DNA of 45,794 nucleotides. Origin: a virus. Lineage: Duplodnaviria; Caudoviricetes. The notes below the pieces were generated by a model that saw only the letters and a program-made list of their open reading frames with translations, was not told where the DNA came from and made no database searches. The DNA lies in the IMG/VR virus record IMGVR_UViG_3300020379_000013, positions 1 to 45,794 of that record. One strand, 5' to 3'. Positions 1 to 45,319 of the stretch are shown piece after piece. The position numbers and the translations under genes are program-made. Within the stretch, counting starts at the first letter, position 1; every line of letters begins with the position of its first letter.

Positions 1-3000
1 GTCGAACTGTGCAACTGTAGCACCCTGTGAGTTCTGTTTTAAGCCAGGTCTAGGAACGTTAGGTGTAGCAACCTTAGCACCGTCAATCTCACAACCAGAA
101 CCACCAAGGAATGATATAAGAGATGAGTTCTGAATATATGGAGATGCTTCAATAATTGGAAGATCTAAGAATGTTTGAACAAGTGGGAATGAATACTTGC
201 CTTGATCTTGTTCTGTAATCAGAGGATCAGGATTTGTAACTGTTCCACCATATGCATTACCACTAGACAATACGTTGTCTAAGATACCCCAGTTTGTAGT
301 CAGTGCGGATACAACGTTAGCACACTCAGGTGCAGATGAATCTACCGTAATAGAACCATTTGATCTAGGTGTGATTTGTGAGAATTGACCACTCTCTAAA
401 TTATTTCTTATTGCGTCTATTGATAGTTCTTTTGCTGCAGCAAATATTGCACGAGTGTAAGTAACCTCAGTTGCAACGTGTTGAACACCACTAGCACCAG
501 AGATGTATAAGTTTGCTGCCTCAACAATTTTAGAGTTACCACCATAACGTAAGTCATACTGGAATGCTCTCGTAATCTTCATTACGTCATCAATACATTG
601 CTGATCGCCAGGTGCAACTGTTCTTGTAACTGATGCTACAGAACCTGGTGTAGTTCCGCTTCCTATTGCTGTTGTAACGATGTCAAAGAAGGTTGTAATT
701 GATGAGATAACGTTTGCACAAGAAGGGTTAGTTGCAACCGTTCTAGTGGCATGTGACATGTTATCGTTGGCAATTGCAGTATCAACGATTGTGAAGAAGT
801 CATCAATCAATCCTTGCTCTACAGTTGTTCCTTTATTATTGTTATCAAGAACCTGAGTGAATCCATGATTGCCTTCTATAGTTCCGATAGAGTCACTAAT
901 AGCAACTGTTCTAGCAAGTGTTTTTGCTATTGCAAACACTGCACGTGATTCTGTCTCTTCACCGTCTAGGAATGTAGATGATGTGTATAACGCAGCAGCA
1001 TCATAAACTTGCTCGTTACCACCATATGCTAGGTTGTATACGATAGTTCTTAGTAGATCTAATACGTCATCAATACAGTTTTGATTTCCGCCAGGCACAT
1101 TGTGTGATGGGTTATCAATGTTGTATCTTTGAACTGCCTCAAATGCAATTAGGTTTAGGTTCTTTTGTATAAGAGTTGCAGCGTCACGACGAACTGTTCC
1201 TGCACCTACATCTAAAGTTGCATTATGATAATACTGTAGTTTTGTAGCATGAGGATTTCTGTATAGAGGTAAATTTCTTCCTGCTAAAATACAAGCATCT
1301 TTCGCATATCCGAATACTTCTGCATAACGATCTCTTGTTAATGAGAAGCCAGGATCAATATAGAATTTTGCTTGATCGAATACTCTATCATTACCACCCC
1401 ATTTAAGGTTATGTGCTACACATTTTTGAATGAAGTCTCTAACGTCATCGTAGCATGCTGTGTTACCTGTAGGAATTGTGTAACCACTATTAGCAGCAAG
1501 CATTTTATTGACTGCATAATCTGCAATCATATCTGCGTTACCAAATAGTAACTCAGAAACATCACCGTATTTGTTATCTACTGGTTTGCTGTTTGGAGTT
1601 CTAAATGGTTTTTGTAAATCTGTAAACTCACCTACGGATCCACTCTGTCCATTCTGTGAGTTGTCTGGTAAATCTAGAACAAATTCTCTGTCATCATAAA
1701 TGTCCTTAATACCATAAGTTCCATTGATGTTTGCATTACCAGAGTTTGTAATAGTTACGGTTGTTAATGCTTTCTTAACTGAGTTAGTTCCTGCACTTAC
1801 AAATGCATGTGTTGAAGTGTCAGATGATACACCAACATTAACAGTAAATGTATTTGTTGTCTTTGCAGTAATCCTTAACCACTTATCAAATGCAGGGTCA
1901 CCGCCTCTAGGATATGGATGGTTTGTTGCATTACTATCTGTGGCACAAGTCATTACGATTGCACCCGCATCAAATTTAATTAAATCACCAACACTAAATC
2001 CATGACCATTGACAGTTACTACAAAGTTACCGTTGCTAGGTGTGTAAGATGCGTTAGTAGGAGTATGCTGACTGAAGTTAGGATATAAGTTATGTCCTTT
2101 CTGAACACGAACTGTTAATGCATCACCACTTGCAGACCAAGAAGTAAGACCTCTTGTTACTGTGTCTGCGGTTTGTCCAAAGTTTGTTCCACCAATAGTA
2201 AGTGCAGAACTACGAGTAGCGGATGATTCATAATAATATTTGACATATGCTGTTGCCTCCTCTGCAATAAATTCTTGGTTGTTTCTGATATTCTCAGCAC
2301 CATCTCTGAATCTATCACTTTGATTGATAGGAGTAAATCCGTAAGGAGAGTTACGTAGAGATGCTAGAACATAGTTGTTAGAACCAACAACAGACTGGTC
2401 ACCAGTTGGGTTGAGACTAGCACTAATTTGTGATAGGTTTGCTCTTACAACAAACTGTAGTGAGAAACCATCAGCACGTTCTATACGATGTGTAATATAT
2501 TTTCTACCGTTAAGATCTTCTAAGTTATCAAGAATAGAAACGCCAGTTCCAGATGATGATGTAACATCACTAGCAGTTTCAATATTTGCTTGCTTTAATA
2601 CAAATGTAACTGTAGTGTTAGAACTATTATAACGACCATAACCTAGACCTAAATCAGAGTTTGATGGAAGTGTAGGAGTTCCAGCTCCTAGATCAAATTG
2701 TCCAATATGATATGTCTTACTAAATCTTGCATCAGCGTTAGGGAAGTTAAATGTAATACCAGCTTGACCTAATGATATTAGATTAGCAAATAAAGCACTT
2801 GTTAATGTATTGTCTACACCTGTGACTGTAACAGTAATTAAACCACCACTAATAGTGTAACTTGTGTTTGGTGATGCACCAAATCCTAATGCAGTATTCT
2901 GGAAACCATAGATGTTAACTTCTTGTCCAACTTCATAATCGTGGAAGTCAGATGATGCAGCAGAAGTCGCTAGATTGAATATAGGACCGTTGTAGGTTGA

Positions 3001-5130
3001 TATAGTGCTTAGAGATGAATCAATTGTTGTAATTGATAATACCTTAGTCTGTAATTCAAATCTTTGGAAACCTAATCCTGCAGATGTTAGAGGTAGTGTT
3101 ATTGGATTATCAGCACCCGATGCATCCTTCTGTGTTGCGTTAGCAGCAGATGCAGCAAGTCTAAACCAGTTAGGACTTTCTACATAAACAAAATATGCAG
3201 TGCCATCAACAAGACCACCGATACCGCCCATCTTACCTTGACGATATACAACACCATCTCCAGTTGTAAATTGATGATTTGTAACATAAATGTGATTGTC
3301 TTCAAACATCACATTACCAGTTGTTAACTGATGGAACTTATCATCAGGAGATACACCTGTAATATCTTTTCTACCCTGAGTTATCGTTGTGTTAGCAATT
3401 GCATTTGCTTCAAGGTCATATAATTCGATAGTATTATCATCTACCTTTCTTACCCAATAACGTGTGCCATCAATTAAACCTGGCAATGGGTTTGTATTCT
3501 CATCTTTTTCATACAATACGTTATCACCAGTTACAAAACCGTGTCCAGTAATTGTAATTCTATCAGTGGTAGTATTGATAAAGTTAGTGCTTCCTCTAAA
3601 TGCTACTGTTTCTCTCTCAGTATCAATAGTATGCTGATAAATTTGGTTAGAGATTGTCTCTAATTCTGGTCTTAATGACTCAGCATCTACAACGTCAAAT
3701 CTATCTGATACACTTGGGTTATTAATATCAGTAATAATATTAGCAAGTGCTGTTGCATCATAAAATACTTTTTCAGCGTCTTGGAATACGTCGGTAATGC
3801 CTGACGTAATCAATACTGTTACAGTTCCAGTAGAGTATGGTGATGCTACAGGACCTGTGAAGTTAATAGCTTGAACTACACCCTGTGTTCCTGATGATCC
3901 ACCTTGTAGGAAATAACCAACTTGTAAAGTTACATTGTCACCTGTATGGTTGTTAAATGTAATACTGAAGATGTTATCACCACGGAATTTATCGCCAGGT
4001 ATTGCAGGAATCTGTTCTACTTCTGGTTCGTAGTATAATCTTTGTTTGTCATCAAATACAAACGCAAATTTCCATGTATGGATTACTGTGCTTTGTGGAT
4101 CTGATGCGTTCTGTAATGCGTCTCTGAATACAACACCAAAGATGTATGTTTCGTTAGACGCCTTGATCATATGACGATCTTGGTTAGCTGGTCTAAGAAT
4201 TACTCGTCTTAAGTTGTCACCAACAAGTGAACAGTTTCTAGGTAGTGATATTGGGTTATCTTCTAGATACTCACCACCAGATACAATAATTGTTACGTAT
4301 TCATCACTTGCATCGGGTGTTGCTTTCTGCAAACCATAAGCAATTTGTGCTGCTTTCTTAACAGTTTGGACTGGTCTAGCAGCTGAACGACCATCGTTTA
4401 GATCACTACCAATGGTTTGTGATACGTATACACGACCACCAGTGTCATTAGTAGCAACTTTATATACAAAGTCAGTGGTAGCAACCCTTCTGGACTGATC
4501 ACTTAGAGGAGGTGTGTCAGCAGTTGGGAAGAATGTTGTGCCAAAAGTAGGACTTGTAACGTCTGTATCTTCAAAGTTAACTAAGTTTGGAGCACGAAGA
4601 TTCAACGCAGGGTTGATGATAGTGTCAATATCAAGGTTTGTAACCTGTGCAGTATCAGAAATGATAGAACGAGTCGTTCTAATCTGTCCCTCAACGTCTA
4701 GCTCAAACTGAGGATCGTTAGTATTGATACCAACCCTAACGTTTTCCTGTGCATTTTTGTCAATATATATTGCATCTTTCTCTAGAGCACCAGTTCCTAC
4801 TGAGATTTCTAGTGACTCATCTCCTTGAATACTTAATGAACGAACTCTTTTATATGCTAGAGTCGCACCCGCTGTAATTACACTATTTGCTGAACCTACA
4901 AAACTTAAATTATCGTCATCTACCTTAGTTACTATAAACTCTCCATCTACCTCACCACCACTTGTGAAGTCAATGTATAATTTTTCTGTCCCTATGATAC
5001 CGTGTGCAACAGTAACTATATTACCAACACCCGCAGAAGTTCGACTGTAGGTGGCGTTGACCCAATTCCCCGTCGCTTTAGACCCAGATGCTTCAATCCT
5101 TTGTTGGTCGGTATTAATCTGAAAACTCAT
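1..5130 (-). CDS. Giant virion structural/fibre protein (partial, >=1710 aa, 3' end beyond window) with split beta-helix-like domain and three phycobiliprotein-like helical modules
   Basis: Absent from the ORF track because no stop is reached. ATG at 5130 with AGGA SD. Hand translation of 5130-4020 and 2340-1 is open: MSFQINTDQQRIEASG...GRVYVSQTIGSDLNDGRSAARPVQTVKKA...GEYLEDNPISLPRNCSLVGDNLRRVILRP...GATVAQFD. The YVS..GSD.NDG/GEY.E/GDNLR motifs parallel those of the neighbouring 2415-aa protein. Confidence 0.9.
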   Translation of the reverse strand, partial: MSFQINTDQQRIEASGSKATGNWVNATYSRTSAGVGNIVTVAHGIIGTEKLYIDFTSGGEVDGEFIVTKVDDDNLSFVGSANSVITAGATLAYKRVRSLSIQGDESLEISVGTGALEKDAIYIDKNAQENVRVGINTNDPQFELDVEGQIRTTRSIISDTAQVTNLDIDTIINPALNLRAPNLVNFEDTDVTSPTFGTTFFPTADTPPLSDQSRRVATTDFVYKVATNDTGGRVYVSQTIGSDLNDGRSAARPVQTVKKAAQIAYGLQKATPDASDEYVTIIVSGGEYLEDNPISLPRNCSLVGDNLRRVILRPANQDRHMIKASNETYIFGVVFRDALQNASDPQSTVIHTWKFAFVFDDKQRLYYEPEVEQIPAIPGDKFRGDNIFSITFNNHTGDNVTLQVGYFLQGGSSGTQGVVQAINFTGPVASPYSTGTVTVLITSGITDVFQDAEKVFYDATALANIITDINNPSVSDRFDVVDAESLRPELETISNQIYQHTIDTERETVAFRGSTNFINTTTDRITITGHGFVTGDNVLYEKDENTNPLPGLIDGTRYWVRKVDDNTIELYDLEANAIANTTITQGRKDITGVSPDDKFHQLTTGNVMFEDNHIYVTNHQFTTGDGVVYRQGKMGGIGGLVDGTAYFVYVESPNWFRLAASAANATQKDASGADNPITLPLTSAGLGFQRFELQTKVLSITTIDSSLSTISTYNGPIFNLATSAASSDFHDYEVGQEVNIYGFQNTALGFGASPNTSYTISGGLITVTVTGVDNTLTSALFANLISLGQAGITFNFPNADARFSKTYHIGQFDLGAGTPTLPSNSDLGLGYGRYNSSNTTVTFVLKQANIETASDVTSSSGTGVSILDNLEDLNGRKYITHRIERADGFSLQFVVRANLSQISASLNPTGDQSVVGSNNYVLASLRNSPYGFTPINQSDRFRDGAENIRNNQEFIAEEATAYVKYYYESSATRSSALTIGGTNFGQTADTVTRGLTSWSASGDALTVRVQKGHNLYPNFSQHTPTNASYTPSNGNFVVTVNGHGFSVGDLIKFDAGAIVMTCATDSNATNHPYPRGGDPAFDKWLRITAKTTNTFTVNVGVSSDTSTHAFVSAGTNSVKKALTTVTITNSGNANINGTYGIKDIYDDREFVLDLPDNSQNGQSGSVGEFTDLQKPFRTPNSKPVDNKYGDVSELLFGNADMIADYAVNKMLAANSGYTIPTGNTACYDDVRDFIQKCVAHNLKWGGNDRVFDQAKFYIDPGFSLTRDRYAEVFGYAKDACILAGRNLPLYRNPHATKLQYYHNATLDVGAGTVRRDAATLIQKNLNLIAFEAVQRYNIDNPSHNVPGGNQNCIDDVLDLLRTIVYNLAYGGNEQVYDAAALYTSSTFLDGEETESRAVFAIAKTLARTVAISDSIGTIEGNHGFTQVLDNNNKGTTVEQGLIDDFFTIVDTAIANDNMSHATRTVATNPSCANVISSITTFFDIVTTAIGSGTTPGSVASVTRTVAPGDQQCIDDVMKITRAFQYDLRYGGNSKIVEAANLYISGASGVQHVATEVTYTRAIFAAAKELSIDAIRNNLESGQFSQITPRSNGSITVDSSAPECANVVSALTTNWGILDNVLSSGNAYGGTVTNPDPLITEQDQGKYSFPLVQTFLDLPIIEASPYIQNSSLISFLGGSGCEIDGAKVATPNVPRPGLKQNSQGATVAQFD

Positions 5131-12951: not shown

Positions 12952-13096
12952 CTAGAGCATTCTCAGATTGTTGGTCAGTATTCATACTATTTAACTGAGT
13001 TTGTAAATCTTGGATTTGTGCCTCCATCATTACATTTATCAGTGTCAATTCAGAAATTTTCTTTTGTAGTATAGAAATAACAATTTTTGCGTCCAT
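12890..13096 (-). CDS. Small coiled-coil protein (68 aa), possible fibre chaperone
   Basis: Heptad pattern LQKKISELTLINVMMEAQIQDLQTQL; lies between two fibre genes; its C-terminus overlaps the start of the 2415-aa gene. Confidence 0.6.
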   Translation of the reverse strand: MDAKIVISILQKKISELTLINVMMEAQIQDLQTQLNSMNTDQQSENALDGNENQAKEIDDSSSSPDDF

Positions 13097-13110
13097 AATT
13101 CAAATAAGTT

Positions 13111-14796
13111 TTAGAACGTTCCCCCGTCGATAGTGTCAGTCCATACAGGAACGCCTCCTGCAGTTACCGTCAATACTTGGAAAGATGTTGTTGCATCAGA
13201 TCCTGTGCCAGGTGATGCCATGTTTGCCTCTGCAGTTACCTGTAAAGGACTTGTTCCTGCACCATAGACAATACCATTTGAGGTAAATGTCCCTACTCCA
13301 GTTCCACCATACTGAACCTCAAGGTCAGTATCAAGTTCTAAATCACCTAGTAATACGGTTCCACGGTTACCTGTGACACCGAATACAGTGTTTGTATCTG
13401 TTGCATCTTCAATGAATGTCCATGCACCTAATCCATCAGCACCACCTGTGCGGTCATAACCGAAGAATCCAAACTTGTTAGTTCCAGAAGCATTGTAGTG
13501 AACCTTAACACCACGATCTAATTGATCATCAGCACCACTCACAGTAACAAGAACAGAGTCATCTGCCATTGTTTGTGAAAGGTTATTACTTAAAGTAAGT
13601 GTTTTTGTTCCTACGTTAATAGCAGAAATTGTTGTGTTACTAGGAATACCAGTTACTGAGGAGGTAACTGTGTCACCAACTTGTAATTGATCTACAACAT
13701 CCACAACAACTTGGTTTTGTCCACCAGCTGCAGATGCAGTCAGTGTGACAGGAGTTGTTGGATCTCCTAATTCAATTGTAGGATCGTTAACTGACATTGA
13801 AGCAGAGTTCACTGTAGTTGTGGTTCCATCAATCTGGAGGTCACCTTTAATAATAACAAGACCACCCGCATCAGTTGTAGGGTCAGGGTCAAGTATTAAT
13901 TCTGTAACAGAGTTGATAGTTGTAATTGAGTTACCATCTAATTTAAGATTGTCAATCTCAATAGAACCAGTCTGTTGTGTATTACCAGAAATGTTTGTTT
14001 GACCATTAAAGGTTACACCATTCTGGAATGTGGTTGTTGAGTTAACTGTAAGTGAGTCACCAGCTGCAGTTCCGATTGTTGCATTGTCGTCAACTTGTAG
14101 ATCTTTGATCCATGCTGTTGCTGCAACACCGATACCACCTGCAAATGTAACACCCGCAGTTGCTACGTTAGAAGCATCTGTGGTATTTGCAAAGTTTACC
14201 TTACTTGTTGATGTGGTTCCGACTTCAATGTCTGCACCATCAATCTTTAGTTTATCACTTGTTGTCTCGTCATATACTATAGAAGCATCTTTGTTATTAC
14301 CAAAGATTAGTTTCATATCGTCAGCGATACGCAAGTCGGGAGTTCCCGCGACACGCTTGACGTCTAAAACTGCATCTGAGTCATTAAATGAGAGTTCTAT
14401 GTCTCCTGTAGTTCCAAACTCTACTTCCTGTCCATCTTCAACTACAATCTTACCTGTGCCATTTGCACGAAGAATAAGATCAGCGTCTGTTGTAGAAGTT
14501 GTGATTACGTTAGCATTTAACTCAATGTCATCTACTAACCATTGGTCTATCTTCGAGTTACTATCTACAATAACTGAAGAACTACCTGTAAGTGTGCCAT
14601 GCACATGATCCAGTAGATCTGTAAAGTATCTACCACCTACAATCTGTGCAGCACCATTGTTATCTCCAACAAATAGTCTGTCACCCGCATTTGCTTGCGT
14701 TCCATTTGCACCAGTAGTAACGGCTAACTCACCGAACGTAATAGTGCCAGGTGCTGTAGAACCTGTGCTCCTTTTTATCAGGATATTCGATGCCAT
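13111..14796 (-). CDS. Tail fibre-like virion structural protein (561 aa)
   Basis: N-terminus MASNILIKRSTGSTAP...FGELA is related to that of the 2415-aa protein; beta-spiral-like IxGDLxIxGTTT segments; C-terminal IDGGTF. Confidence 0.8.
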   Translation of the reverse strand: MASNILIKRSTGSTAPGTITFGELAVTTGANGTQANAGDRLFVGDNNGAAQIVGGRYFTDLLDHVHGTLTGSSSVIVDSNSKIDQWLVDDIELNANVITTSTTDADLILRANGTGKIVVEDGQEVEFGTTGDIELSFNDSDAVLDVKRVAGTPDLRIADDMKLIFGNNKDASIVYDETTSDKLKIDGADIEVGTTSTSKVNFANTTDASNVATAGVTFAGGIGVAATAWIKDLQVDDNATIGTAAGDSLTVNSTTTFQNGVTFNGQTNISGNTQQTGSIEIDNLKLDGNSITTINSVTELILDPDPTTDAGGLVIIKGDLQIDGTTTTVNSASMSVNDPTIELGDPTTPVTLTASAAGGQNQVVVDVVDQLQVGDTVTSSVTGIPSNTTISAINVGTKTLTLSNNLSQTMADDSVLVTVSGADDQLDRGVKVHYNASGTNKFGFFGYDRTGGADGLGAWTFIEDATDTNTVFGVTGNRGTVLLGDLELDTDLEVQYGGTGVGTFTSNGIVYGAGTSPLQVTAEANMASPGTGSDATTSFQVLTVTAGGVPVWTDTIDGGTF

Positions 14797-15017
14797 TAGA
14801 AGCTACCCCCATTAATTGTTATGTCGTTTAATACGTTTGTAGCGATGAATCTTGTGCTTGTCGCGTCATACACGAGCACTGATCCGTTTGCTAGTCCACC
14901 TTGTGATGTGTCTGTCAAATCTACGTCTGACATTCCGCCAATCGTGCCACCGCCACCACCTGTAGCGACACGTGTGACTCTTGGAACTGATTGGTCTCCA
15001 AATCTTAGTCTTGCCAT
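14796..15017 (-). CDS. Small structural/hypothetical protein (73 aa)
   Basis: Stop/start overlap (TAATG) with the next gene; DVD...NGSVLVYD..T.RF repeat-like motif; ends INGGSF, like the neighbour's IDGGTF. Confidence 0.7.
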   Translation of the reverse strand: MARLRFGDQSVPRVTRVATGGGGGTIGGMSDVDLTDTSQGGLANGSVLVYDATSTRFIATNVLNDITINGGSF

Positions 15018-15356
15018 TTAAAGTGTTACTCCCTCAAGAACGCTTACCGATCCTTCTAACACTCTGGACTTAATGCCAGATCCAGAAGTTATTACAACGT
15101 CGTATACAAACCGTCCACTCTTCATAGCAGCGGTCTGTGAATTAGTCAAAGATAGTTGAACTCTTCCGCTTGTAGCAGGAGATAAAACTGCAGCAGTTAC
15201 TGTTTGTGAAGTGCTACTTGTGTAGTGCTTTTTAATCAAACACGCTGCCGAATATCCAGTCAGGTCAAAATCCGTTCCGTTATCATTTTCGACTGTAAAG
15301 TCAATGATAAAGTCAGAACCCTGATATATTATTAAGTTGGATACAGCACTTGCCAT
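15018..15356 (-). CDS. Conserved phage Ig/BppU-N-like baseplate-associated protein (112 aa)
   Basis: I.QG.DF...DLTGY...G.V.LSLT..QT.....GR.VYDV.......RVLEG pattern, common in T4-like cyanophage structural regions. Confidence 0.7.
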   Translation of the reverse strand: MASAVSNLIIYQGSDFIIDFTVENDNGTDFDLTGYSAACLIKKHYTSSTSQTVTAAVLSPATSGRVQLSLTNSQTAAMKSGRFVYDVVITSGSGIKSRVLEGSVSVLEGVTL

Positions 15357-15378
15357 TCTTTAAAGAATTCCCATATAA

Positions 15379-15400
15379 TATTTAGCTTAACTTTATTTAT
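15379..15400 (-). promoter_or_regulatory. Late promoter variants ATAAATA (15394-15400) and CTAAATA (15379-15385)
   Basis: TAAATA cores immediately upstream of the 112-aa gene. Confidence 0.55.
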
Positions 15401-15614
15401 CCTTCTTCTCCACTAGGGTTGTCAGAAGTGCCTTAACCTCATCTAGTTCTTTTCTGAGGTCTTCTAATGTTTTATCTTTTTTCTTTGCAAGTTCTCTCGC
15501 CTTGATATATGCATCATACTGCGAAGTGTCAGTATTAAGTATTGCATTAGACGTAGGATCCCTGCCAAGAGTCGTATGACCCTCAACAGGGAGTAGTTCA
15601 ATTGGTTCTTCCAT
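15393..15614 (-). CDS. Hypothetical protein (73 aa) with C-terminal coiled coil
   Basis: Coupled to the upstream gene (TAATG); PVEGH..L.RD..S.AILN motif; helical C-terminus. Confidence 0.7.
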   Translation of the reverse strand: MEEPIELLPVEGHTTLGRDPTSNAILNTDTSQYDAYIKARELAKKKDKTLEDLRKELDEVKALLTTLVEKKDK

Positions 15615-18600
15615 TATGCTAGAGCGATTCCTCTGAAATCTTTGACTCTTGGTATATATGGTTGTGCATGATTGAGTAAACTTATCTTGATCTGGAAACC
15701 TTCAAATGCCTCTACATCCTCAACTGTGTATTCATAGTCTGTAAATGTCTCTAGGTCATTGTTAGGAACTAATTCACCTGAGTCTGGAATACCTGTTGTG
15801 TTAAAGAACTCAAATGGTAATTCATCTAGGTTGTCACTATAACCAGCTGGTATCAATTTATACATCACTCTAATCTTAGAGTCACTCCAAACGTTTGCTG
15901 CGAGCATTACTTTCAATCCAGAAGCACTCTTCTCTAGTCGTGCAACCTTAGTAATGTAGTTAGCAGCACATTCTCCACCGACATTTACTGATGGTTCTAT
16001 GTTGTTAATTACGTTTCCTGTTGTAATAGCGTCACATCTAGTCAAGTCAATGACAGGAGATAGGTGTGATACTTCAGAATCAAGATTTAATTCAAGTGTC
16101 AATGACTTAACACTATTCATTCTGTTGATCTCATTGATCTGGTTTGCAACTATCTTTGTAGCAGGGAAGTAATTCTCCTCACCGAGAGATATTTCTTGGA
16201 AGTCACTGTCCTTAATAAATGATGTCTCTGCTGTAACGTTAGCAGGGAAAGGTCCGCAAGATGTTCCACTGGTTCCTTGAACTCTAGCAATGATGCTAGT
16301 GCGAGGTTCTACCTGACTCTGTATCTGTGGAGATAAGACATCCCATGGAACGTTTTGTGATGCAACGATGTTTGCTCCACCACCTTGTATACCAGTTCCT
16401 GCATTTACACCAGATATTTGTAAGTTGTAACTGTGAGGACTATTGATAGAAGTAATACCACTACTATGTGTCTTATTGATCTTAGTAAGAGGTATACCGT
16501 CAAAGTTATAGCATTCTACAATAGCACCAGCTGCATGTATCTTACCAGTTGATGATCCTGATGTTCCAGTATGGTTTCTACCATTTGTTATAAAGTTGAC
16601 AACTTTGTTATTTGTGCCACTAAGTCCAGAGTATGCGATAATCTCATCACCACTACCGTCTTCTTCAGTTCCTAGTATTCTAATGAAACCAGGATTTGAT
16701 GAACTTACTGAACTACCACCTATAGTAGTATGGAAACCATTGTTTTCTGCAATCTCAATAGATGTTCCTGTGCTACTTAACTGTGCTGCAGTTGTGCTGT
16801 TTGCCACCTCAGAGATAACGCCACTCATCTTCAAGTAGTTCAATCCAGATTGCATACCATGATTACTATGGAATACTCTGATTAAGTCACTACCAGATGT
16901 TGTCTTAAGTGCATTTCTTCTTAGATTCAAGAATCCACCATTGCTTTCACCTAACTCACCGTTCTCTAGGATAAGTTTAGATGGTGCTGCTGTTGTCGGT
17001 AATGTAAATTCTGCTCTGTAAATCTTGAACATCAAGTCTTCATACTGAGAAGGAGTCCAAGTAGACGCATTCTGAGACTTGAATAAGACACCGATATATG
17101 GTTGTTCAGATATTTTCTCTCCAACGTGTGCAGCGTCAATAGCATCTTCACCTAGAAGTGAGATGAATACTTTGTATTGGTTGGAATCTGATGTCAATAC
17201 CATTGCACATTCTTTTAGAAGTGGAATGTAGACAGGTGCTTTGAACTCAAATGTGGTTGGTTTAGATGCATCAGCTGATGTAAATACATCTTCTGCATCT
17301 TTAACTACCTTAGAGAATGGTAATACTGTTTGTGTTGGGTTACCGTTTTCTACAGTTCTGATATCTAATGCTACAGGGATTTCTGGATCCTTAGTAAAGA
17401 AGAATATATCAATCTTAGTTAAGAATACACCACCCTCAAGGGTTGAGTCGTCAATCAAGAATGTTTGTGCTAGTGGGTCACACCATCTAGTCTCATCTCT
17501 TGATTCAGATGTAACATTAACTAATGTTCTAGCGTCAAACTGATCCTCAGATGTAACTCTTGCATTTCTTACAGATATAATAGTCTCTTGTGTAGTCTGT
17601 AAGATACCTGATGAACTAAATTCTGCTTCACCACTAGAGTCAGATACACCAACAACTCTACTGTCATTAGATGTATCACTAAGTCTGAACAGTTTTGTTC
17701 CAGTCTTAAACTTAACGTTGCCTTCTACATTAGGTGCATCAATAAAGAATGAACCTCTAAGATTACCTTTCTTGTCTGTAATCAAATCTTTGTTTGATAC
17801 TTTTGCAACTGCACCACTAGTCTCACCAACTAAGTAATCATTGATCTTAGGTGATCCGTAGTAGTTACCTTTGACTTGATCTGCAAGTGACTTAGTATCA
17901 ATATTGATAAAGGTCAAGTTAGAGGTGTAGTCAGTTGTTGTGCTTATGTCAGTGCCATCAATAGGATTGATTGCAATATTTTCGTTAGGAGCTGATACTC
18001 TTGCCTTAAATCTGAATTTACCGTTTCCTTTTTTAACATGAACTGTCTCACCGATTTGGAATGGAATGTTGTTTGTTTGTGCATCAGTGCTTGGATCTTT
18101 TATCACACCCATAATCTTAGGTGTAATTAACTTCTTAGGAACTGCAATGCTGTCAAAGAACGCAAAGAACTTGGTTCTTGGTTTTAGTTTTTGACATGTA
18201 AATGATATATTCCTAGAACGCATAAACTGAATATGCTCTACTGATACAACTTTACTACCCAATGATTGCTGTTCAATCACAGGAGTAACTCTATATCTAA
18301 TACCTGTTCTGCTCTGTTTTGTGGTTGTTGTAGTTGTTGTAGTAATAGTTCTACGACGTTGTGTTCTACCTTTACCACCGCCACCACGCCATGATCCTAC
18401 TGATCTCTGAACATCAGTTCCTGTCCATGTTGTTTTCCATGAGTTCCAATGTATAGGAGAGAAACCATTCTGGTCTGCATTGTATTCTCTGACTGTTGTT
18501 AAGAAGTTACCTTCTACAACAGGACCTTGAATAGGATTGAGTGACTTAGTATCTACCCAGTTATCTGACTCTGGATATAATTCAACGTCACCAGTAAATG

Positions 18601-21600
18601 TAAAGACGTTAAATGGGTTGACATTCTCAACAGCTGATGCATATGGTTGATCTACAAGAACGCTAGATGTATATGGAAGCGTAATTATATCCTCATCATT
18701 TTGTTTTACATTCTGTGATGCTGTGCTGTATTGTAGAGGAACCTGTGTTGTATAGTGTGCAGGACGCATTTGTCCTCTTTCAAAATCTGTAGATACCCTA
18801 TAATCAGGATGTAATGTATCTGCAGTAGAAAGACTTGCAAAGTTATCAACTATGAAACCATTTTTAAATCTGCTAAGACCACTAGCATCTCTAATCTCCA
18901 TATTTGCAGTCTCACTCTCTAGTAGTGACAACTGTGTATAGAATTCAAGTGTCTTAATTCTATCTTCTAATACCTGTATATCTCTGAAGGTATATCTCTT
19001 AAAGTTTGTTTCTACAATACTGATATCTTCTTCAACGTTAAAGACATATGGGACATATGTTATCGTTGCAAGTAACATTGCATCCTCTAGATCTTCTGGA
19101 GGTTGTGGTCTAGTGCTAGGTGCACCTTTCACAATAGAGATAATGCTATTACTGTCTAAGAATAGTTTGTCAACACGAGGTAAGTAATACTGTAAACTTA
19201 AAGTAGTTGTATCACTGATGCCAGGCAATCCTGTCTCGTTATTTGTAAATGCTCTAGATGCTTGGTTAAAGTATCCTGTTGCACTTAGAGTAAACGGTGA
19301 TGCTTGAGATCCACTACCTGATAGTGCCTGTGGAACTATTGGACGGAAATCAATAACATCTCTAAGTTGAGTTCCTTCGTATGATGGAATAATTTTGTAA
19401 TCTGATGCTGCATATGAGTCAACAGTATATGGATTAACACCATTAGATGTAAAGAATCTATCGAATATAATCAATAGTTTATGTGTTGGTGCTGCAACTC
19501 CAGCTTTCCTTACTAATCTAGAATAATCATAGAACTGATCTCTTTGACCATTATCAAGATCAAAGTTATCTGTAACATTTGCAGAACCTAAGTCAATACC
19601 ATTTGATTGAATTTTAAGTGTAGCATTTGGTGCTGTAATAGTCTCACCATCTGTAAACTTATCATCTTCTATTGGAATAAAGTATATCTCATTTCCTGTA
19701 GTAGATACAATTCTTGCTCTTGAACCAGAAGCATCTCCTTGTATAACGTCATCTATTGCTAGTGTTCCTAGTAAGTTTGTATACTGGAAGTGTGGAATGA
19801 CAGGATCACTTGCATTTGTAGATTCAAATACTGCCTTAATTTTAAATACGTCAGCACAACCAAGAGATATAAGATCATCCTCTACTCTAGTTCCATGACC
19901 ATCATTAACTTGTGATAATCCATTTGAACTACCTGTAGAACCAGCTACCTTAAGAACCTTCATTCTCTCTGTAGTTTTTGCCTTACCAGATCTATCTGCA
20001 CTAGAAACTGTTCCAATAACATCAATTGATGTTGCATTGGACATGCCTGTTAGTGATAAAGCATCTACGTTTGCACTAGAACCGTTAAGAGTAAATCCAT
20101 TACCAGATGAGTAAATCTTACCCGCATCTGATCCTGCAGTTACGATTGCAATAAAGTCATCATTGTCTGACCCATTGATCCACTTTAGTCCTGCTCCTGC
20201 AGTAGCAGTTGCATTACCCGCACTAACACTTATACCAGATACAGTTGTTCTAAAACGTCCTGATGGGTTGACTGTGTTGTTATTATTTGTATTTTTTACT
20301 GCTGCATATCCAAGAGGTGTAAGAAGTTGCTTCTTCTCTGCATCTTTTATCTCTGGACGTGTCCTTATAATACCACTAGTCAATGCACCATTAGCTAATG
20401 TAGTAGATCCTAGACGAGTTACATTGAAATTAAAGTTATCAGTAACAGCGGTAACTCTTGCTCTATGAGATGCACCGTTATTTGAGAACTCTACAATGTC
20501 TCCTATTATCAATTGAGACGCAAAGTTAGACAACGTAGAAGTAATAGTTGCAGATCCTGCAGAGTGACCTGATAAAATAGGACCTGAGCCAGGTAATATA
20601 ACCTTAACATCTAATACTGAATCAGCAGTTCCACCACCAGTATTGAAAGAATACTGTTTGACGTCTGCCATGTTGTATCTTTTGATACTAGATATAGTTC
20701 CTATAGTAGCTCCAACTGCATCCTTGACAACCTCGCCAGCTACGAATGTTCCATTTACACCATTGACAAGCAAATCATTACCACTATCTGACACTTCATA
20801 TGCTACTGCACCACTGGTTTGACCTATCATACGGTCACCTGTAGCAGGAGATCCACTAACACTACCTGTCATGGTAAGTTTTTGTATGAAATCTACGTCA
20901 ATAAGATTTGCACGATATACTGTAGATGCATTGCCAGGTGTTAAAGATCCTTCAACATAAGAAAAGTTAGCAACTCTTGCAGTTGCAATTGCATCACCCG
21001 CTGCTGAGCCAGGTGTTGCTGTTGCTTGATCTCTAAATGTAATAGTTTCATATAAACGAGGTGCCTCGTAAATATTTGTCATTAAAACAGAGTTACCAAA
21101 GTCAGAGGTGACTGTTTTGTTCATCTCTGTGTCAAATGATCTTGGTTTCTCTATATCTTTGTATGTTGATGATAACCTTTCTGTTCTATAACCCTGAACA
21201 TAAGCACATCCTGAAGATAATTGTATCGCTACCTTGTCTTCTGATGGTGTGTTACCATCTTGTGTCGTTTCTGTAGATTGATATACACCACCGTTGAATC
21301 CATCATCTAAGTTTTCTTTCGCATCTACCTTGAATTTTTTAACATAGTAGTTACCAGATTCTTCTTTTGTTCTAGTTGCTAATACATCATTGATAAAACC
21401 TAGATCACTACGTTCTACCTTTTTCTCAATCTTACCAGTATTAGTTCTAAGTAACTCTATAAAGTCAGCAGAGTTAGGTGCTGTTAATAACTTCTTAACT
21501 AATGTTAGTGTAATTTTAAACCTATCTGCACCAGGTGCTGAGAAGTTTGTGCTTCCTATAGCATTGTCATATAAACTTGCGTCCTCATCAGCAGTTACGA

Positions 21601-23817: not shown

Positions 23818-26800
23818 ATGATCTTAGACGAACTTCTGGGAGGAGACTAACGTTTCCACTTGTTGTTCGTGAGAATGGGAATTCAACTGTAAATGTTGTT
23901 GCTCCTGTTACGGTAACAATATATGTTCCGTCAAATCCAGTGCCACTAGTAAATTCTAGATAGAATCTTTGACCAGTAACTAAATTATGATTACTAGAGG
24001 TAGTGACTGTGCATGAAAGTCCGCTAGAAGTATAAGTTCCTGTAAGGACTGGATGCTCTGCAGCAGTTGTTCCTTCGGCACCTCTACCACCTGTTGCAAC
24101 TGTTAGTGTATTACCACTTACATCCTTAGAACCATACAATATTCTTTCACATGTCCATACTGGTGGAGTAACAGATGTATTGTAGAATGGTATCAATACT
24201 TCACCTTCGTCAGGGAAACCATTCTTCTCAGAAGAATTAAAGTATACATTCTTCAAGTTAATAGTAGTTCCCGCTTGTGATAATGTAGATGATAGGTAAG
24301 ATGTTCCTAATGACAATGAATTAGATATGATTCTATTTCTTTGTTTTCTTTCTAGATCTAGAGGATGAACAACTAATACAGTAGGAGCACTAGTATATCC
24401 TGCACCACCCTTTAGATTTATGACTGATAAAACTCTACCACTTCCAGTCTCAATTGTAGTCTCAGCAGACGCACCTTCTCCACCACCACCTTGGAATATT
24501 AGAATAGGTGGAACCTCATAGTTAGAACCCTGATTAGTAATATTGACTTGTGTTACCTGTCCTCCAGTTACAGTTGCAGAAAACTCAGCAACAGTTGGTT
24601 TCAAACCTGTATATTCGTAACTATCAATAGTAGTCGAACTTGAGACAGCTGCGACAAGACGATCAGAACCTTCACTAGAAATCTTAACTCTGTCTTCTGG
24701 ATCAATAGCGTTGTATGTGTTACTTACTAGAATATCTGCTGCACTACCTGTATAGATGAATAGGATACAATCAGATCCTGCTCTAGGTGCCTCACTAAAC
24801 TCTATGATAGATCCTGTTAGGTTATATGCTACGCCAGGTTCCTGATATACACCATTGAGGAATATAATCAAGTTATTTTGTGCTTGAACTGCAGCGTTGT
24901 CACTTTCTAGAGAGAATGGTTCAGTATTCTCTTTCATAGTAAATGTTTTCTTCTTACTATCAAAGAATGGTTCGATAGGATCTAATTGAGTCAATTTACC
25001 AAAGTAGAATCCAAAGAAGTCCATACCAGCTAGAGGTGGTTCTGTAAATGTAAGTGTGCTACCTGTATATGTGTATGCATCAGTTGTTCCTTTGATTTGT
25101 AATGTGCTATTCAAGAATATCAAGAAGTTATCACTTGGTGGTAATATCTGTGTAGATCCACCAGACAATGTAGTAAATACTGCATCTTGTCCATCAAAGG
25201 TTACGCTACCGACATCAACTTGGAAGAATGGTTGTGTTGATGCTGTTCTAGTAATACCGTTCAAGTTTCCACTACCACCCGCTGTAGTTCCTACTGCCTG
25301 AGTTACAATCGCCCACAATGTAGATATTGTTGATGCAGTATCAACACAGCATGCCTCGGAGTATGATGTGCTACCAGAATCATTACTAATAGTATTATCT
25401 TTTATTTGTGTGCCAACAGTATCACCATTTGTAGTAACTGTTAGGTTACGCATGACCTGACGACAAATATCTCTAGCATGATTGAATACTTCTACAGACT
25501 CATCTTCTTCTCCACCTAGATGAACTGTTCCAACATAGAAGTTAGCAGCATCGTATGTTGCATCGTTTCCACCAAACTCTACGTTGTCTGCTACTGCATC
25601 TATTAGTAAGTTTGTATCACGAACACATTTGGTTTTGTAGACAGCAGAGAAAGATGGGTTTGCTGCTTGCATTCTACCGTATGCAGTTGTAGCAATAAAG
25701 TTTTGATTAAGTCTAAGTAAGTTTCCTGCGTCTGCAACTTTGCTGTATTTGTAAACACCGTAACTGACAACTGCCCTTGTGACAGCTGTAGAAGTGGCAC
25801 TCACAAATGTATGAGTTGATGTATCAGATGATACACCTACGTTGACAGTAAATGTATTTGCAGTTACAGCGTCAATAGTATGCCATGCACCTTCTGATGG
25901 ATCTCCAACTCTAGGATATGTGTGCTGTGTTTGGTTATTATCTAAACCACATGTAAATGTTAGTGAATTATTAGCAAAGAATATTCTGTCACCTTTAATT
26001 AATGGATGACCATTCAATGTAAGAACCATCTCACCTGTAGATGGTGTGTAAGCAATATCTGTTGGTTGGAACTGGTATGCTGAGAGTCCTACCCATGTAT
26101 GTGCGTCAGTGTTTGTAGGTGCTGTTCCATTCAATGCGTTAACAGTAATTGTTGTGGTTGCCACTGCTTCAACAGGAACATCTTTCATCTTGCCTTGAGT
26201 TCCAATAGGATCTGTAGGACGTGGATATGATGCAGTTCCACCGCCACCATAGTTACAACTGAACTGTAATGACTCGTTAGCAATCCTTACTGTAGATACT
26301 GCCTTCTTAACGCTGTTTGTTACCGCAGATACGAATGTATGTGGATCAGTGTTTGTAGAAGGAATAGTATCAAGAACTTGAACTGTAAATGTATTTGTAG
26401 TGCAATCAAATGCTTCTAACCATCTGTCTGATGCATAATCTGTAGAACGAGGATAATCGTCATTACCACCACCAGAATATGTGCAACTAAATTTAATCGC
26501 ACCATCTGCAAACTTAACAAAGTCTCCATTTACAAATCCATGATCGTTAATAGTTACCACCATCAGACCTGTATTAGGATCGTATGTCGCACCTGTAGGT
26601 GTATGTGTGCTAGGTGCTGATAAACCATGTCCAGAACCTATGGTCAATACCATTTCACCAGATGCAGGAGCATATGTTGCGGTTGATGGAATGAAGTGTT
26701 TGACTAATTGTTCTCCAACACGAGGATCAGATATTGCTAATACATCATTGTCTGTATAACCATTACCAGCTGCATTGAGAACGACACCACTTACTTTACC

Positions 26801-29800
26801 ACCAGTAACTGTAATATCAGCAGTTGCACCAACACCAGAACCTAATCTATTCTTAAGTGGCACTGCAGTGTATACGCCATCGCTATACCCACTACCACCT
26901 GTGATTGCACCAAATGTTTTTATCTCATCTCCAATCTGATCTAATACAAATGAACTAGTGTAATCAGAACGATCAAAATACATTGCGAGGACTTTACTGC
27001 CTGATAATGGTGGAGTAACAAATGTTACAACGTTATTTGCAAATGTGTAAGTAGCAGGGTTTGCAATCAATCCATTTATCGCTAATAATAATTGTGATGT
27101 TGCTGCAGTCTTACCGATCTTAGTTCCTATGTCAATACCATCAACTCTTACTGCAAATGAGTCATTGATACCGTCTATAAAGCATCTTAGTGTATGTCCT
27201 ACACCTGATCCTTGTGATGTTAGATCTATTGAGGTTGCACCGTCTGTTAATGCTAATTCTATTGTATTTGCATCTACAACTTTAACAAAATACTTACTAG
27301 CATTTGTAAGTCCACCAATAGGTGTGCCAGCTCTGTTGTTTGGATAATTCCCTGCATTGATAGTAGGTAGTGCAGCAGTAGGATCTGCGATAGCACCTGT
27401 AACTATTCCTGCAAAGATTGTGATAGCACTCTTGACATCAGCACAACCACCAGAATCATTAGTAATACTTAGATCTGTTTGTGGAACTATGTCTGTGTAT
27501 GTTCCTACTGGAAGATCGTTAGTTACTGCTAATAAACATAAGTCTCTTGCTTTATTAAATGCATATATTGTTTCTGCCTCTTCACCAGCTACGTGTTGAA
27601 TACCTGTCCCGTCAGTATATTGTTGTGCAGCATCCACACTAAAGTAGTTACCACCATACTTAAGATCATTTGTCCATGCTGCGATTACAAGTCTAGTATC
27701 TCTAGCACATTTTGCTTGATCGTATGTTAGTGATGGATATAGAGCATTTAAGAAACCAATTGTCTCTTCTACAATATAATCAATGTTATTGACGATTAAA
27801 TCTCTAGCATCTAAGAATCTATCTCCACCAGAGAAGTAAGTTACTTGTTGTCCTGTTAGAAGACCATGATTAGTAATTGTAATTCTATCATTGATACTAT
27901 CTACAATAGTAGTGCTAGATCCGTCAAATGTTAATGTCCTGTCGCTAATATCATCAATCTTATATGAGATACAAGATAAGATCTTCTGAACGTCTAATAA
28001 CTGTTTTCCGTAGATAGAAACCTCTGTAGGAACTAATGCAGTGTAATCTGGTTTGGATAATGCAAAGTTACTAATCTTAGATAATTTACCAGTATTCTTA
28101 GCAGATGGTTTTGGTGTTATGAAGGTTGTTCCATTAAATGTTGTGCCAAGAGTATTTGTATTTGGTGACCACCAATCAAATTGACTACTTGGGTTGAGAT
28201 TAGAAGTTGATCTTGGTCTAAACTCTTTCTTGACACTTGATAGTAATACTTGTGTTCCAACTACCTTAAATCCTGCAGGGTGTGCTGCAAACTTAAGTGG
28301 ATTCTTCCAACTATTAATATTAATTGAAGATGATATGTTATATGAGAATTCTTGGAATCTATTACTGTCATATACACGTTGTTCGTTAAGATCTAAGAAT
28401 CCAGTTGTCTTCTCCCAGTTTGCAGATGATGTGCTAATTGGTGATACGATAAATTCAGCATCTGCTCTATCAAATGCATGTATCTGACCAAACGCACCAG
28501 ACTCTTCACCAAATACAGGTTCGCCAACTACAAAGTCACCTTCTATAAGTTCAACACTAACAACACGACCTGATGCATCCCAATTCTTAATAAATCCAAA
28601 TGCAGTAAATGATGTATTAGATGCACCCTGATATATTCTCTCTCCAATAGAGAAAGTAGCTGGTTTCATGTATGCAATGATATTGTCACCTAAATCTGTA
28701 GTTTCAAGAAGGAAATAAGTTTGACCTGTAAGTGGATCGCCTAAAGGTGGACTTGTAAATGAAATTGTAGTCTCAGTGTTTGCATTAGCAAGAGATGTTG
28801 CTAATTTGATCTGATTAGTTGCTAATCCATTTGCAGTAGTTGCTGCTACAGCAAAATATGTTGTTCCTGCTACTAATGGTTCTGGAAGAGTTCCAGATGA
28901 CTCTACTAGAGTAACTTTGGTTCCTGATGGAATCTTAGCGTTATATGGGAAGTTTATTGTGCTACTTGAGTTAAGTGCTACAAATGTATGACTGACTTTT
29001 GCCTTAACTGTAGGTGCAGATGTAAATCCTCTACCAGAATTGTTAACCTCTACTGCCTGTATAATCTCGTTCTGTATTATTGGTTCTAACTCAAATAATG
29101 AACCTTGACCACCATCAAGTATGATTTCTGGTTGTGATACAAAATTAGCACCACCATTTACAACTTCAAGATAATCAATAACTTGAGTTCTGACTAATTG
29201 TAAATTATAGGTTGTATTTAACTTTGGTTTTAGTGTTCTATCGTGACTGTAGTTAAATGTAATGTTCTCACCACCAATCTTCAATATCTCACCCATATCT
29301 GATGACTTAAGAAGTATTGATGCACCAGTTCCAGATTTCTGCTCAATATTGATTATTGGAGGACTTTGATATTGTTGTCCACCAGCTTCAATATTAATAA
29401 GAGATACACCTTGATTTGATATCAATGCATTTAATGAAGAGTTGATTCCATTACCACCTTGTGCACTGATAGTAGGTGCAGATAGATAACCAGATCCAGA
29501 GTTCGTTACAGTTATAGTGTCTATTGCTGCATCTAGTAATGTCTTAGTTTGGACGACATCATTGAATGTCATTGTAACTGGTTCTATGACTAAATCATCA
29601 GCACCATCACTTCCACCTAAGTCTGCTCCAGATATTGTAATATCGTCTGCTATGTTATATGCAGTTCCACCATTTGTTACAGTTACTGTCTCAACAGTTC
29701 CTGCACCGTTCGTGGCCACCGTAAATTCAGCACCAGTCGCACTGGTTCCTGCTATAGACTTTTGTTGTATACCTGTGTATGTTTGACTTGCTCCATAGTT

Positions 29801-39820: not shown

Positions 39821-40312
39821 TTATTGATAAAGGTATCCCATAGTGTTGGGAGGTAAGTTCATTAACTGTGTAAACCTGTCAGTATACTTCTCTATACGTC
39901 TTCCACCACCTTTTGTTGGTGTATACATTAACTCTCTCATGTTCTCTGCTATCTTTCCTTTCTTATGCTTAGTGAATGCTTCTTTCCTAGTCCAGAGATC
40001 GTAGAAGATATCCTTGTCATCAGTGTGTTCCCACTCGTGGAAGTATCTCTTGGAGATCTTCTCATAGGGACGTTCTTTCATATATTCGATATCAATACCG
40101 ACTTGCTTTGTAGAGACAGCAACGACGCTAAAGATATGACTGTCCGATTTATTCCAATGCATCGTTATAGGTTCCTTACAGTCTAATACCCGACTACTCA
40201 GAAATTCTCTCATGGCACATCTTATCATGCCACCAGAGGGATGGTTAGGTTCATCTATATTACTGAACAGATATACATGTGTGTCATCGTTGTGAAAAAT
40301 CAAAGGGGGCAT
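39821..40312 (-). CDS. Sfp-type 4'-phosphopantetheinyl transferase (ACPS family), 163 aa
   Basis: VGIDIE and FYDLWTRKEAFTK match the two PPTase catalytic motifs; HWNKSDS occupies the FNxSHS position; ISKRYF..WE segment; GAGG SD. Confidence 0.82.
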   Translation of the reverse strand: MPPLIFHNDDTHVYLFSNIDEPNHPSGGMIRCAMREFLSSRVLDCKEPITMHWNKSDSHIFSVVAVSTKQVGIDIEYMKERPYEKISKRYFHEWEHTDDKDIFYDLWTRKEAFTKHKKGKIAENMRELMYTPTKGGGRRIEKYTDRFTQLMNLPPNTMGYLYQ

Positions 40313-43861: not shown

Positions 43862-44317
43862 ATGCCAAATCACTGCCACAATCGAGTCACCTTCTACTCA
43901 GAAGATACTACACTCATTACCAAATTACATAACATATTCAGAATTGCACTTGACCCAAATGATGAAAGGTCAGTCTTTGGTCAGTTCATACCCGAACCAG
44001 ATTGGAAAACTACACCAAACGACAAAGGCGAACTACCTATCCAACCTGATAAGGATAGCATGTATCCTCCACAGTTTCCAGATGGTGTTACTGATGATAG
44101 ATGGTATTCATGGAGACTTGCCAACTGGGGAACTAAGTGGGATTGCTATGCAGTAGAGATTGACGACAGCGACATGCACAACGGATTCGAGGTCACGTTC
44201 GATACTGCGTGGTCACCTCCCGAAGAAATCTGTTATGCTATCAAAGATCAGTTTGACGACCTTAGCGTATCATGGTTTTTTGATGAACCAGGTATGGAAG
44301 TTGCGGGGTATCTATAA
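43862..44317 (+). CDS. DUF1281/YubB-like ferredoxin-fold protein (151 aa)
   Basis: MPN.C.N, WY.WR..NWGTKWD, F.TAWSPP and EPG motifs. Confidence 0.8.
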   Translation: MPNHCHNRVTFYSEDTTLITKLHNIFRIALDPNDERSVFGQFIPEPDWKTTPNDKGELPIQPDKDSMYPPQFPDGVTDDRWYSWRLANWGTKWDCYAVEIDDSDMHNGFEVTFDTAWSPPEEICYAIKDQFDDLSVSWFFDEPGMEVAGYL

Positions 44318-44566
44318 ATGGATAAGTCTAAATTTACACCCGAACTCATAAGCGAACTCAAAGGGTTCTATGTTGAAAGGGTTGTTGATAATATGGACAC
44401 TAAGGACTTAGTGAACTATGTTATGGACGACCTCGACAGATACTATGAGAAGAGATCCGACATGGATTTCCTCGAAGATGCCTATAATTATTGGGAAGAT
44501 CACTTTGACGATGTAGTAGAAGAGATCGAGGACTACATGAAATGTAAGTTCAAGAAGGAACGTTAA
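44318..44566 (+). CDS. Hypothetical acidic early protein (82 aa)
   Basis: Abuts the upstream stop; YVER.VD.MDTKDL motif. Confidence 0.72.
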   Translation: MDKSKFTPELISELKGFYVERVVDNMDTKDLVNYVMDDLDRYYEKRSDMDFLEDAYNYWEDHFDDVVEEIEDYMKCKFKKER

Positions 44567-44779: not shown

Positions 44780-45235
44780 ATGTCAACTAACGCTAGAATA
44801 GGTTATGTATTACCCGACGATTCCATTGTTTCTGTTTATCATCATTGGGACGGATATCCTGAGTGGTTGGGTGTAACTCTCAAGCAGCAATACAACACAG
44901 ATGAGAAAGTTCGCGAACTCATCGACGGTGGCAACATGTCTAGTTGCTACTCAGATAATGAATTTGACTACGATAAGCAAGAGTTCGTTAAACAAGATCC
45001 AAAACCCTCTTACTATGGCGGTGACGATGAAGCACCAAAACTATTCAAGACTCTCACCGATTTATCACGGGTCAATGACGGATCAGAGTTTCTATACCTA
45101 TTCCTTAAGGGTAGGTGGGAATGTTACTCAATAGATCAAAAATATGATGACGATTGGAATCTAGTTTCAACTACTATTCAAAATTTAGAGATTCCAGATG
45201 ACTATCCAAACTATGCCGAACCAGCTGCCGCATAG
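44780..45235 (+). CDS. Conserved phage protein with Y.H.DGYP motif (151 aa), function unknown
   Basis: MST.ARIG, SVYHHWDGYP..LG..L, LIDGG.MS and E(F/Y).YLF motifs. Confidence 0.78.
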   Translation: MSTNARIGYVLPDDSIVSVYHHWDGYPEWLGVTLKQQYNTDEKVRELIDGGNMSSCYSDNEFDYDKQEFVKQDPKPSYYGGDDEAPKLFKTLTDLSRVNDGSEFLYLFLKGRWECYSIDQKYDDDWNLVSTTIQNLEIPDDYPNYAEPAAA

Positions 45236-45291
45236 TGCCAATTGGCAAACTGTCCACTAAGTGCCTATATGTCGCAAATAGGCACTATAAT
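45235..45291 (+). promoter_or_regulatory. Early promoter: dyad GTGCCAATT..AACTGTCCAC, 9-bp hairpin, TATAAT
   Basis: Dyad at 45235-45257; AGTGCCTAT/ATAGGCACT at 45260-45268/45278-45286; -10 at 45286-45291. Confidence 0.72.
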
Positions 45292-45319
45292 ATAAACATA
45301 CCAAACAAATAAGACTAAA

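Follow-up and report, generated by a model that had tools for sequence, protein, structure and literature searches.

Phycobiliprotein-like modules, most likely nested within one another, in the giant tail fibre of a T4-like cyanophage

Results

Tail-fibre gene and its three modules

The giant tail fibre of a T4-like cyanophage contains three modules, here termed X, Y and Z, that belong to the phycobiliprotein superfamily yet are not light-harvesting subunits, as they lack the N-terminal X/Y helices and carry a CxDD motif. Z is most likely nested in Y and Y in X, an arrangement that is well supported by sequence comparison and in which the separated halves of X and Y would pack against each other. 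Judging from predicted attachment sites in two of the three copies, the phage particle may carry pigment.

The window, by which we mean the whole stretch of 45,794 nucleotides that was analysed, is a 45.8-kb contig encoding gp25, gp6, a gp7-like protein, gp8 and other giant virion proteins on the minus strand. The 5' half of the tail-fibre gene (1..5130, minus strand; 1,710 aa), an ortholog of PHM2_096/PHM1_097, is open at the contig end. A database protein of 3,440 aa (P0001) shows a single mismatch over the 1,710 aa of this ORF and therefore stands for the full-length fibre gene of about 3,440 aa; it has three modules only, so that the count beyond the window suggested in the first-pass annotation yields no further copies. 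The closest cultured matches are the tail-fibre genes of the Prochlorococcus phages P-HM2, P-HM1 and MED4-213, with 61-75% identity in the module region and the same neighbouring genes. Elsewhere in the contig, a gene of the 4'-phosphopantetheinyl transferase (ACPS) family (39821-40312, minus strand; Pfam E 4e-8) adjoins the baseplate genes, and two ORF pairs on the plus strand (43862-44566 and 44780-45568), each of 151 aa plus 82 aa with equal spacing, lie at the contig end; their 151-aa proteins appear unrelated by eye.

Module X begins with helices A-B (aa 939-968; 2227..2316, minus strand), which include Asp943 (nt 2302-2304), the beta-39 equivalent, and which form helices at residues 7-20 and 22-38 of the structural model described below, in a block with pLDDT 85-93. 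The B-E loop of X holds, in series, a beta-rich region (aa ~975-1180; 1591..2208, minus strand), defined by alignment and by strands in the model, and then module Y with Z inside it. Module Y comprises helices A-B-E-F-G (aa 1187-1290; 1261..1572, minus strand), with Asp1190 and Cys1226 (nt 1453-1455, CxDD), and a last helix, H (661..729, minus strand), with Cys1471 (nt 718-720), the beta-153/155 equivalent. Module Z (aa 1311-1455; 766..1200, minus strand) is contiguous, with helices A-B-E-F-G-H, and is placed inside the G-H loop of Y by orthologs without Z; its E-helix cysteine, Cys1352 (nt 1075-1077), lies in CxDD, and a last-helix cysteine is missing in this lineage. Two H helices are adjacent in the fibre, the first being Z's own last helix. 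Module X then resumes with helices E-F-G-H (aa 1506-1623; 262..615, minus strand), which carry Cys1512 (nt 595-597, CxDD) and Cys1603 (nt 322-324).

The beta-rich region of the X loop is itself nested, with an inner beta repeat of ~100 aa (nt ~1768-2070) that is missing in one relative (L023) and longer in P-HM1 and P-HM2, whose fibres have about 215 extra residues of beta repeat in this loop relative to the contig's fibre. A ~100-aa beta repeat with one cysteine and a Y/H-P-R motif is common to 1591-2208 (minus strand) and the gp7-like ORF at ~25800-26900 (minus strand), and its nesting depth varies among relatives (L015, L016, L052 and P0022).

Two further, contiguous module copies occur in the gp7-like baseplate protein, copy 1 at 27374..27832 (minus strand; cysteine codons 27707-27709 and 27443-27445) and copy 2 at 25277..25750 (minus strand; cysteine codon 25625-25627 and a Cys-Cys pair at 25346-25351), both with CxRD. 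The five copies of the contig share 29-39% mutual identity. In three orthologs (P0072, P0075 and P0088), gp7 copy 1 is interrupted between helices F and G by one entire module.

Much of this layout had been read from the translation in the first-pass annotation. All nine motifs that it quoted are present in the fibre ORF, at aa 939-959 (nt 2316-2254) for the start of X and aa 1507-1614 (nt 612-289) for its remainder, at aa 1187-1247 and 1468-1485 (nt 1572-1390 and 729-676) for Y, and at aa 1314-1453 (nt 1191-772) for Z. It had placed the five cysteine codons of the fibre modules exactly, and was right about the absence of a last-helix cysteine from Z, in this lineage, and about the E-helix motif, which is CxDD in X, Y and Z and CxRD in both gp7 copies.

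Kinship with phycobiliprotein beta chains

Pfam family PF00502 matched aa 1311-1373 with 23.1 bits, the curated cut-off being 22.2, and matched 22 of 36 contiguous modules at E<=1. A module profile built from the 36 contiguous modules and searched against PDB sequences found 65 at E<=1, with a best E of 7.6e-6; the best 60 of these 65 matches were all phycobiliproteins, and the first 31 were phycocyanin or phycoerythrin beta chains. The alignments begin at about beta residue 34 and place the E-helix cysteine on the beta-82/84 cysteine and the last-helix cysteine on the beta-153/155 chromophore cysteine, this second stretch being weak alone.

We modelled aa 931-1628 as a single chain with AlphaFold2, using an alignment of 44 rows. 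The model has a mean pLDDT of 84.7 and a pTM of 0.83, with every expected helix present. All 50 structural matches listed for it were phycobiliprotein entries, nearly all phycoerythrin or phycocyanin beta chains, and were centred on Z, which in this predicted model has a globin-type A-B-E-F-G-H fold (best Z score 16.8, rmsd 2.0 Å, 135 residues aligned); model residues 381-524, corresponding to Z, superpose on beta-chain residues 34-172/177. The halves of X and of Y, read together, scored 88 and 110 bits against the module profile, structural matches being reported for Z only. Between model residues 355 and 381, before Z, none of the N-terminal X/Y helices that mediate alpha-beta pairing was predicted. 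Because the alignments begin at beta ~34 and the fold matches beta chains, we describe the module as a beta-chain core without these helices. The relationship to PF00502 and the phycobiliproteins claimed in the first-pass annotation is upheld by Pfam, by the PDB profile and by the fold of Z, for which the predicted globin-like character is also borne out. Its likeness to allophycocyanin did not hold, as phycocyanin and phycoerythrin beta chains occupy the top ranks in both sequence and structure.

Probable nesting by loop insertion

Four segment profiles, one each for A-B, E-F, G and H, were built from the five contig copies and iterated. They gave the order AB - AB EF G AB EF G H H EF G H in ORF 1..5130, and had 0 matches in reversed decoys. 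When these 12 segments were shuffled, 1 in 20,000 orders parsed as brackets. We then scanned 271 proteins, of which 38 contained each of the four segments the same number of times (at least 2), proteins with missed segments and those of the tandem lineage being set aside; all 38 count-balanced proteins passed a strict bracket parse. They represent 8 different orders, each valid in <=0.23% of shuffles, and 19 of the 38 have the order of the contig.

Natural orthologs point the same way. Four of them (P0080, P0081, P0087 and P0090) are without Z; in these Y is contiguous, and the next helix best matches the contig's H at aa 1470. The two that were aligned in full, P0080 and P0087, are 73-77% identical outside the module region. 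Since Y joins an H-like helix directly in the Z-less orthologs, Z appears to have been inserted in the G-H loop of Y. In P0024 and L052, a beta insert of ~750-950 aa occupies the B-E loop of Z, the same loop that is opened in X, and among orthologs whole balanced modules are gained or lost at three different loops. The beta-39 Asp and last-helix cysteine of X lie 660 aa apart and are conserved together, which fits a nested fold. A complex prediction of the two halves of X (aa 933-974 with 1502-1628) had a score of 0.08 (mark 0.32) and is counted neither way.

The first-pass annotation had proposed nested domains that arose by repeated loop insertion and built a stalk. The ortholog polymorphisms and the bracket parses sustain the nesting and its origin; the single stalk gives way to a forked shape, predicted because the loop of X holds the beta region and Y, with Z, side by side.

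Predicted ligand sites

In all 44 ortholog rows, X, Y and Z have the E-helix cysteine and the Asp three residues downstream, without exception in the form CxDD; the beta-39-equivalent Asp and beta-155-type cysteine are likewise invariant in X and Y (44/44 rows). In Z, Asp1316 aligns with beta Asp39, which we take to be the counter-ion of the beta-155 bilin. Among 36 distinct variants of Z, the last-helix cysteine is present in 17 and missing in the others, including the contig's Z; the beta-39 Asp is kept in all 17 Cys-bearing variants and changed in 7 of the 19 Cys-less ones, changes that reflect perhaps two events only. Family-wide, parsed modules kept the Asp in 67/67 cases with the last-helix cysteine and lost it in 3/10 without (2 unanchored). 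The overall frequency of Cys is 0.7%, yet the last-helix cysteine is found in 350 of the 363 distinct H segments.

Among the 588 copies in H-containing proteins, the E-helix motif is CxDD in 331 and CxRD in 231; the tandem lineage has CxRD in 1,260 of its 1,311 copies. Biliproteins usually carry CXRD (PMC10151467, in the part available to us). With CxDD, and with a loop preceding the E-helix cysteine that is 7 residues shorter than in beta-phycoerythrin, the beta-84-type site is probably altered and may bind bilin less well than, or differently from, the CxRD copies of gp7; the difference in motif suggests, as had been surmised in the first-pass annotation, that the ligand properties of the fibre modules differ from those of the gp7 copies. 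The beta-155-type site looks intact in X and Y and lost in the Z of this lineage. An obligate C82-C155 disulfide was considered and rejected: the E-helix cysteine of Z is present in 44/44 rows, including those in which the last-helix cysteine has been lost, a pattern that speaks against a simple disulfide joining these cysteines.

CpeT and bilin-synthesis genes

In beta chains, Cys-155 receives its bilin from T-type lyases (PMC2327270, in part). The portion of PMC3037559 that we consulted treats the role of cpeT and of bilin-synthesis genes in phages as unresolved. Using a phage-CpeT profile on 22 complete or near-complete genomes, we found CpeT in 8 of 12 with modules and in 0 of 10 without (Fisher p 0.0017), in a sample whose first 14 genomes were partly picked knowing a published cpeT table, whose relatives are not independent and in which four of the eight positives had helped to build the profile. 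The second genome batch alone gave 1/4 module-bearing against 0/4 module-free genomes (p = 1). The profile found no gene in the module-bearing S-SKS1, B3, DSL-LC03 and S-T4.

The distance between cpeT and the gene with the modules differs among phages: it is ~1 kb in Syn1 and S-PM2, where cpeT is upstream, but large in P-HM2, whose fibre occupies 78-89 kb and whose bilin genes are found at ~4, ~20 and ~171 kb. Heme oxygenase, bilin reductase and CpeT are all encoded by P-HM1, P-HM2 and MED4-213; the contig analysed here, at 45.8 kb, does not extend far enough to reveal such genes. Bilin reductases as such do not track the modules: of 14 genomes, 6 encode one, including three in which no module was matched, namely those of P-SSM2, S-SSM7 and Pelagibacter phage Mosig. 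The Mosig genome (L183) gave no module match despite its cassette of heme oxygenase and pcyA-like genes, which lie directly upstream of neck-protein genes. As a separate observation, the S-PM2 record NC_006820.1 (168000-171000; L195) places 15 same-strand tRNAs within the 11-kb fibre gene that bears the modules; LN828717.1 lists no tRNA within this gene, and the coordinates in NC_006820.1 therefore look mis-mapped.

Distribution of the family

The fibre module region matches 358 of 50,697 cultured-phage records, comprising 351 named cyanophages and 7 entries labelled 'Marine virus'. With the module profile we found 1,160 clusters at 50% identity (E<=0.001; 1.84 billion representatives), and some fibres of the family carry up to 34 tandem copies. 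The comparison of cyanophages with other phages suggested in the first-pass annotation showed that the family is not confined to cyanophages. A 270-kb T4-like phage without psbA (G001; loci L147, L154, L160 and L165-L178) has 12 module matches, with tandem CxRD copies in its fibre, together with adjacent heme oxygenase and bilin reductase genes, CpeT and GroEL/ES. Its CpeT has a signal-peptide-like N-terminus and is present though the tandem lineage of G001 shows no last-helix segment. A Bacteroidota host is suggested by a G001 protein with a type IX secretion sorting domain. The purpose of bilin cassettes in phages of non-cyanobacterial hosts has been called enigmatic (PMC11480375, in part).

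The tandem-module fibre of G001 (G001:C1 ~52.1-59.5 kb) appears as a pair of successive ORFs separated by 14 bases (L167:12114-12971 and 12985-19998, minus strand), the second of which holds one more module; this could reflect a split gene, read-through or an error in the sequence.

Discussion

We give about an even chance to the reading that the nested fibre domains carry covalent bilin, loaded at the beta-155-type cysteines of X and Y by the phage CpeT. The fibre would contain three beta-chain-core domains folded in nested fashion, with Z in the G-H loop of Y, and with Y and the beta region in the B-E loop of X. The split halves of X and Y would pack into forked, out-and-back arms, and the phage's own CpeT would attach bilin at the beta-155-type cysteine of each, the bilin coming from phage Ho1/PebS-type enzymes or from the host. 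For the phage, the pigment might serve light-gated attachment or photoprotection. Against bilin stand the CxDD motif in place of CXRD, the shorter loop, the absence of N-terminal X/Y helices and a link with CpeT that runs one way.

Alternatively, the domains may be nested but pigment-free, acting as structural spacers, with cysteines that serve inter-domain or inter-subunit disulfides or folding and with CpeT present through shared ancestry. Such spacers, which we consider rather unlikely, would accommodate a motif that has lost its Arg, the missing N-terminal X/Y helices, the 4 of 12 module-bearing genomes without CpeT, the recurring cysteines in the beta repeats of the same fibre, and a copy number and nesting that vary freely among relatives, as in length-tuning repeats. 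They sit poorly with several features of the putative sites: the E-helix cysteine of Z persists in every row, including rows without a last-helix cysteine, so that there is no obligate pair; the Asp beside both sites is kept, and the beta-39 Asp changes only once the cysteine has gone; and the tandem lineage holds to CxRD almost throughout. Protein mimicry or adhesion, in which the domains would bind a host surface component or a host biliprotein as partner with no pigment of their own, is in our estimate very unlikely. Their location in tail-fibre and baseplate proteins would suit this role, as would the cultured matches, all named cyanophages apart from the 7 'Marine virus' records; yet Prochlorococcus hosts are without intact phycobilisomes (PMC3037559, in part). 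The helices for alpha/beta pairing are also missing, the family extends to a phage without psbA, and the invariant Cys/Asp pairs of the buried sites would be left unexplained.

Tail fibres are usually oligomers. Rather than being nested, the segments might be swapped between the subunits of such an oligomer to complete one another, or might be circularly permuted units; the model covers a single chain, and the fold search matched only the contiguous Z. We regard this as highly improbable, because indels add or remove whole balanced modules at three different loops, all 38 balanced proteins parse as brackets and the single-chain model is confident overall (pTM 0.83).

Returning to covalent bilin on nested domains, one possible use can be set against adsorption data. 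According to the part of PMC6628666 available to us, adsorption of P-HM1 and P-HM2 fails in the dark, whereas P-SSM2 still adsorbs, though less well than in light; that source attributes the light dependence of P-HM1 and P-HM2 to changes of an unknown kind in receptors or fibres. P-HM2 has the modules and CpeT, and P-SSM2 has neither. Particles of the P-HM type could thus be pigmented, with a CpeT-loaded pocket that would form only when Asp943 meets Cys1603, and light could move the forked arm and gate attachment. We hold this to be unlikely, as the evidence from dark adsorption is a single contrast that changes on the host side explain equally. If true, it would explain both the phage cpeT gene and the failure of P-HM1 and P-HM2, compared with P-SSM2, to adsorb in the dark.

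The analysis names exact cysteines, as candidate pigment sites, in the fibre of the cultured P-HM1/P-HM2 group, and hence the role of cpeT and light-dependent adsorption both become directly testable. Even without pigment, the modules represent a widespread family whose globin-type fold has repeatedly received copies of itself in its loops; such self-insertion is a rare route of protein building, and the natural orthologs allow it to be traced step by step. Our literature searches, which covered main texts and mostly papers outside subscription, yielded no earlier account of phage virion proteins that contain phycobiliprotein-like domains, and such domains are not mentioned in the part of an AlphaFold3 cyanophage preprint that we had.

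Comparison with known systems

The fibre gene itself is orthologous to the giant tail fibre of T4-like cyanophages filed as phrog_5342 or T4-GC 513 (PHM2_096, 'YapH protein'), with the same neighbours, in records labelled only as tail fibre, YapH or hypothetical protein. Phycocyanin and phycoerythrin beta chains (CpcB, CpeB and cryptophyte beta; PF00502) are the closest structural relatives: Z superposes on them with Z scores of 15-17 and an rmsd of ~2 Å, the beta-82/84 Cys with its Asp and the beta-39 Asp are shared, and so is the beta-153/155 Cys in X and Y. The fibre modules differ from these chains in having no N-terminal X/Y helices, CxDD in place of CxRD and a B-E loop shorter by 7 residues; at 14-22% identity to them, they are embedded in, and split by insertions within, a 3,440-aa virion protein, and their bilin is only predicted.

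Bilin biosynthesis-associated globins, or BBAGs (Rockwell et al. 2023, PMC10151467), are bilin-binding globins with the variant motifs CXRD, CXQD and RGMC, as far as the consulted part of that paper describes them. Like BBAGs, the fibre modules are phycobiliprotein-related globins that do not belong to phycobilisomes, and both occur in genomes that also encode heme oxygenase and bilin reductase. In the part of PMC10151467 that we had, BBAGs are described as stand-alone proteins of the cell, from clusters with V4R, Fe-S or B12-binding genes, whereas the modules are virion domains among baseplate genes and have a beta-155-type Cys. No BBAG-type gene cluster (pre-PcyA/HO/V4R/Fe-S or B12) surrounds the fibre, whose neighbours are fibre and baseplate genes.

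In architecture, the nearest parallel is the Si3 insertion of the cyanobacterial RNA polymerase subunit RpoC2, a six-level recursive insertion (PMC13114784, in part). Both follow an A1-B1-C-B2-A2 pattern in which like domains are inserted recursively to give an out-and-back arm, and in the fibre this order comes with inner units that are removable, as seen in the Z-less orthologs and the bracket parses. Si3 is made of beta hybrid motifs within an enzyme, from the same partial source. The fibre, by contrast, uses an all-alpha globin-type domain that is opened at three loops, with a depth that varies among relatives and reaches three helical levels here.
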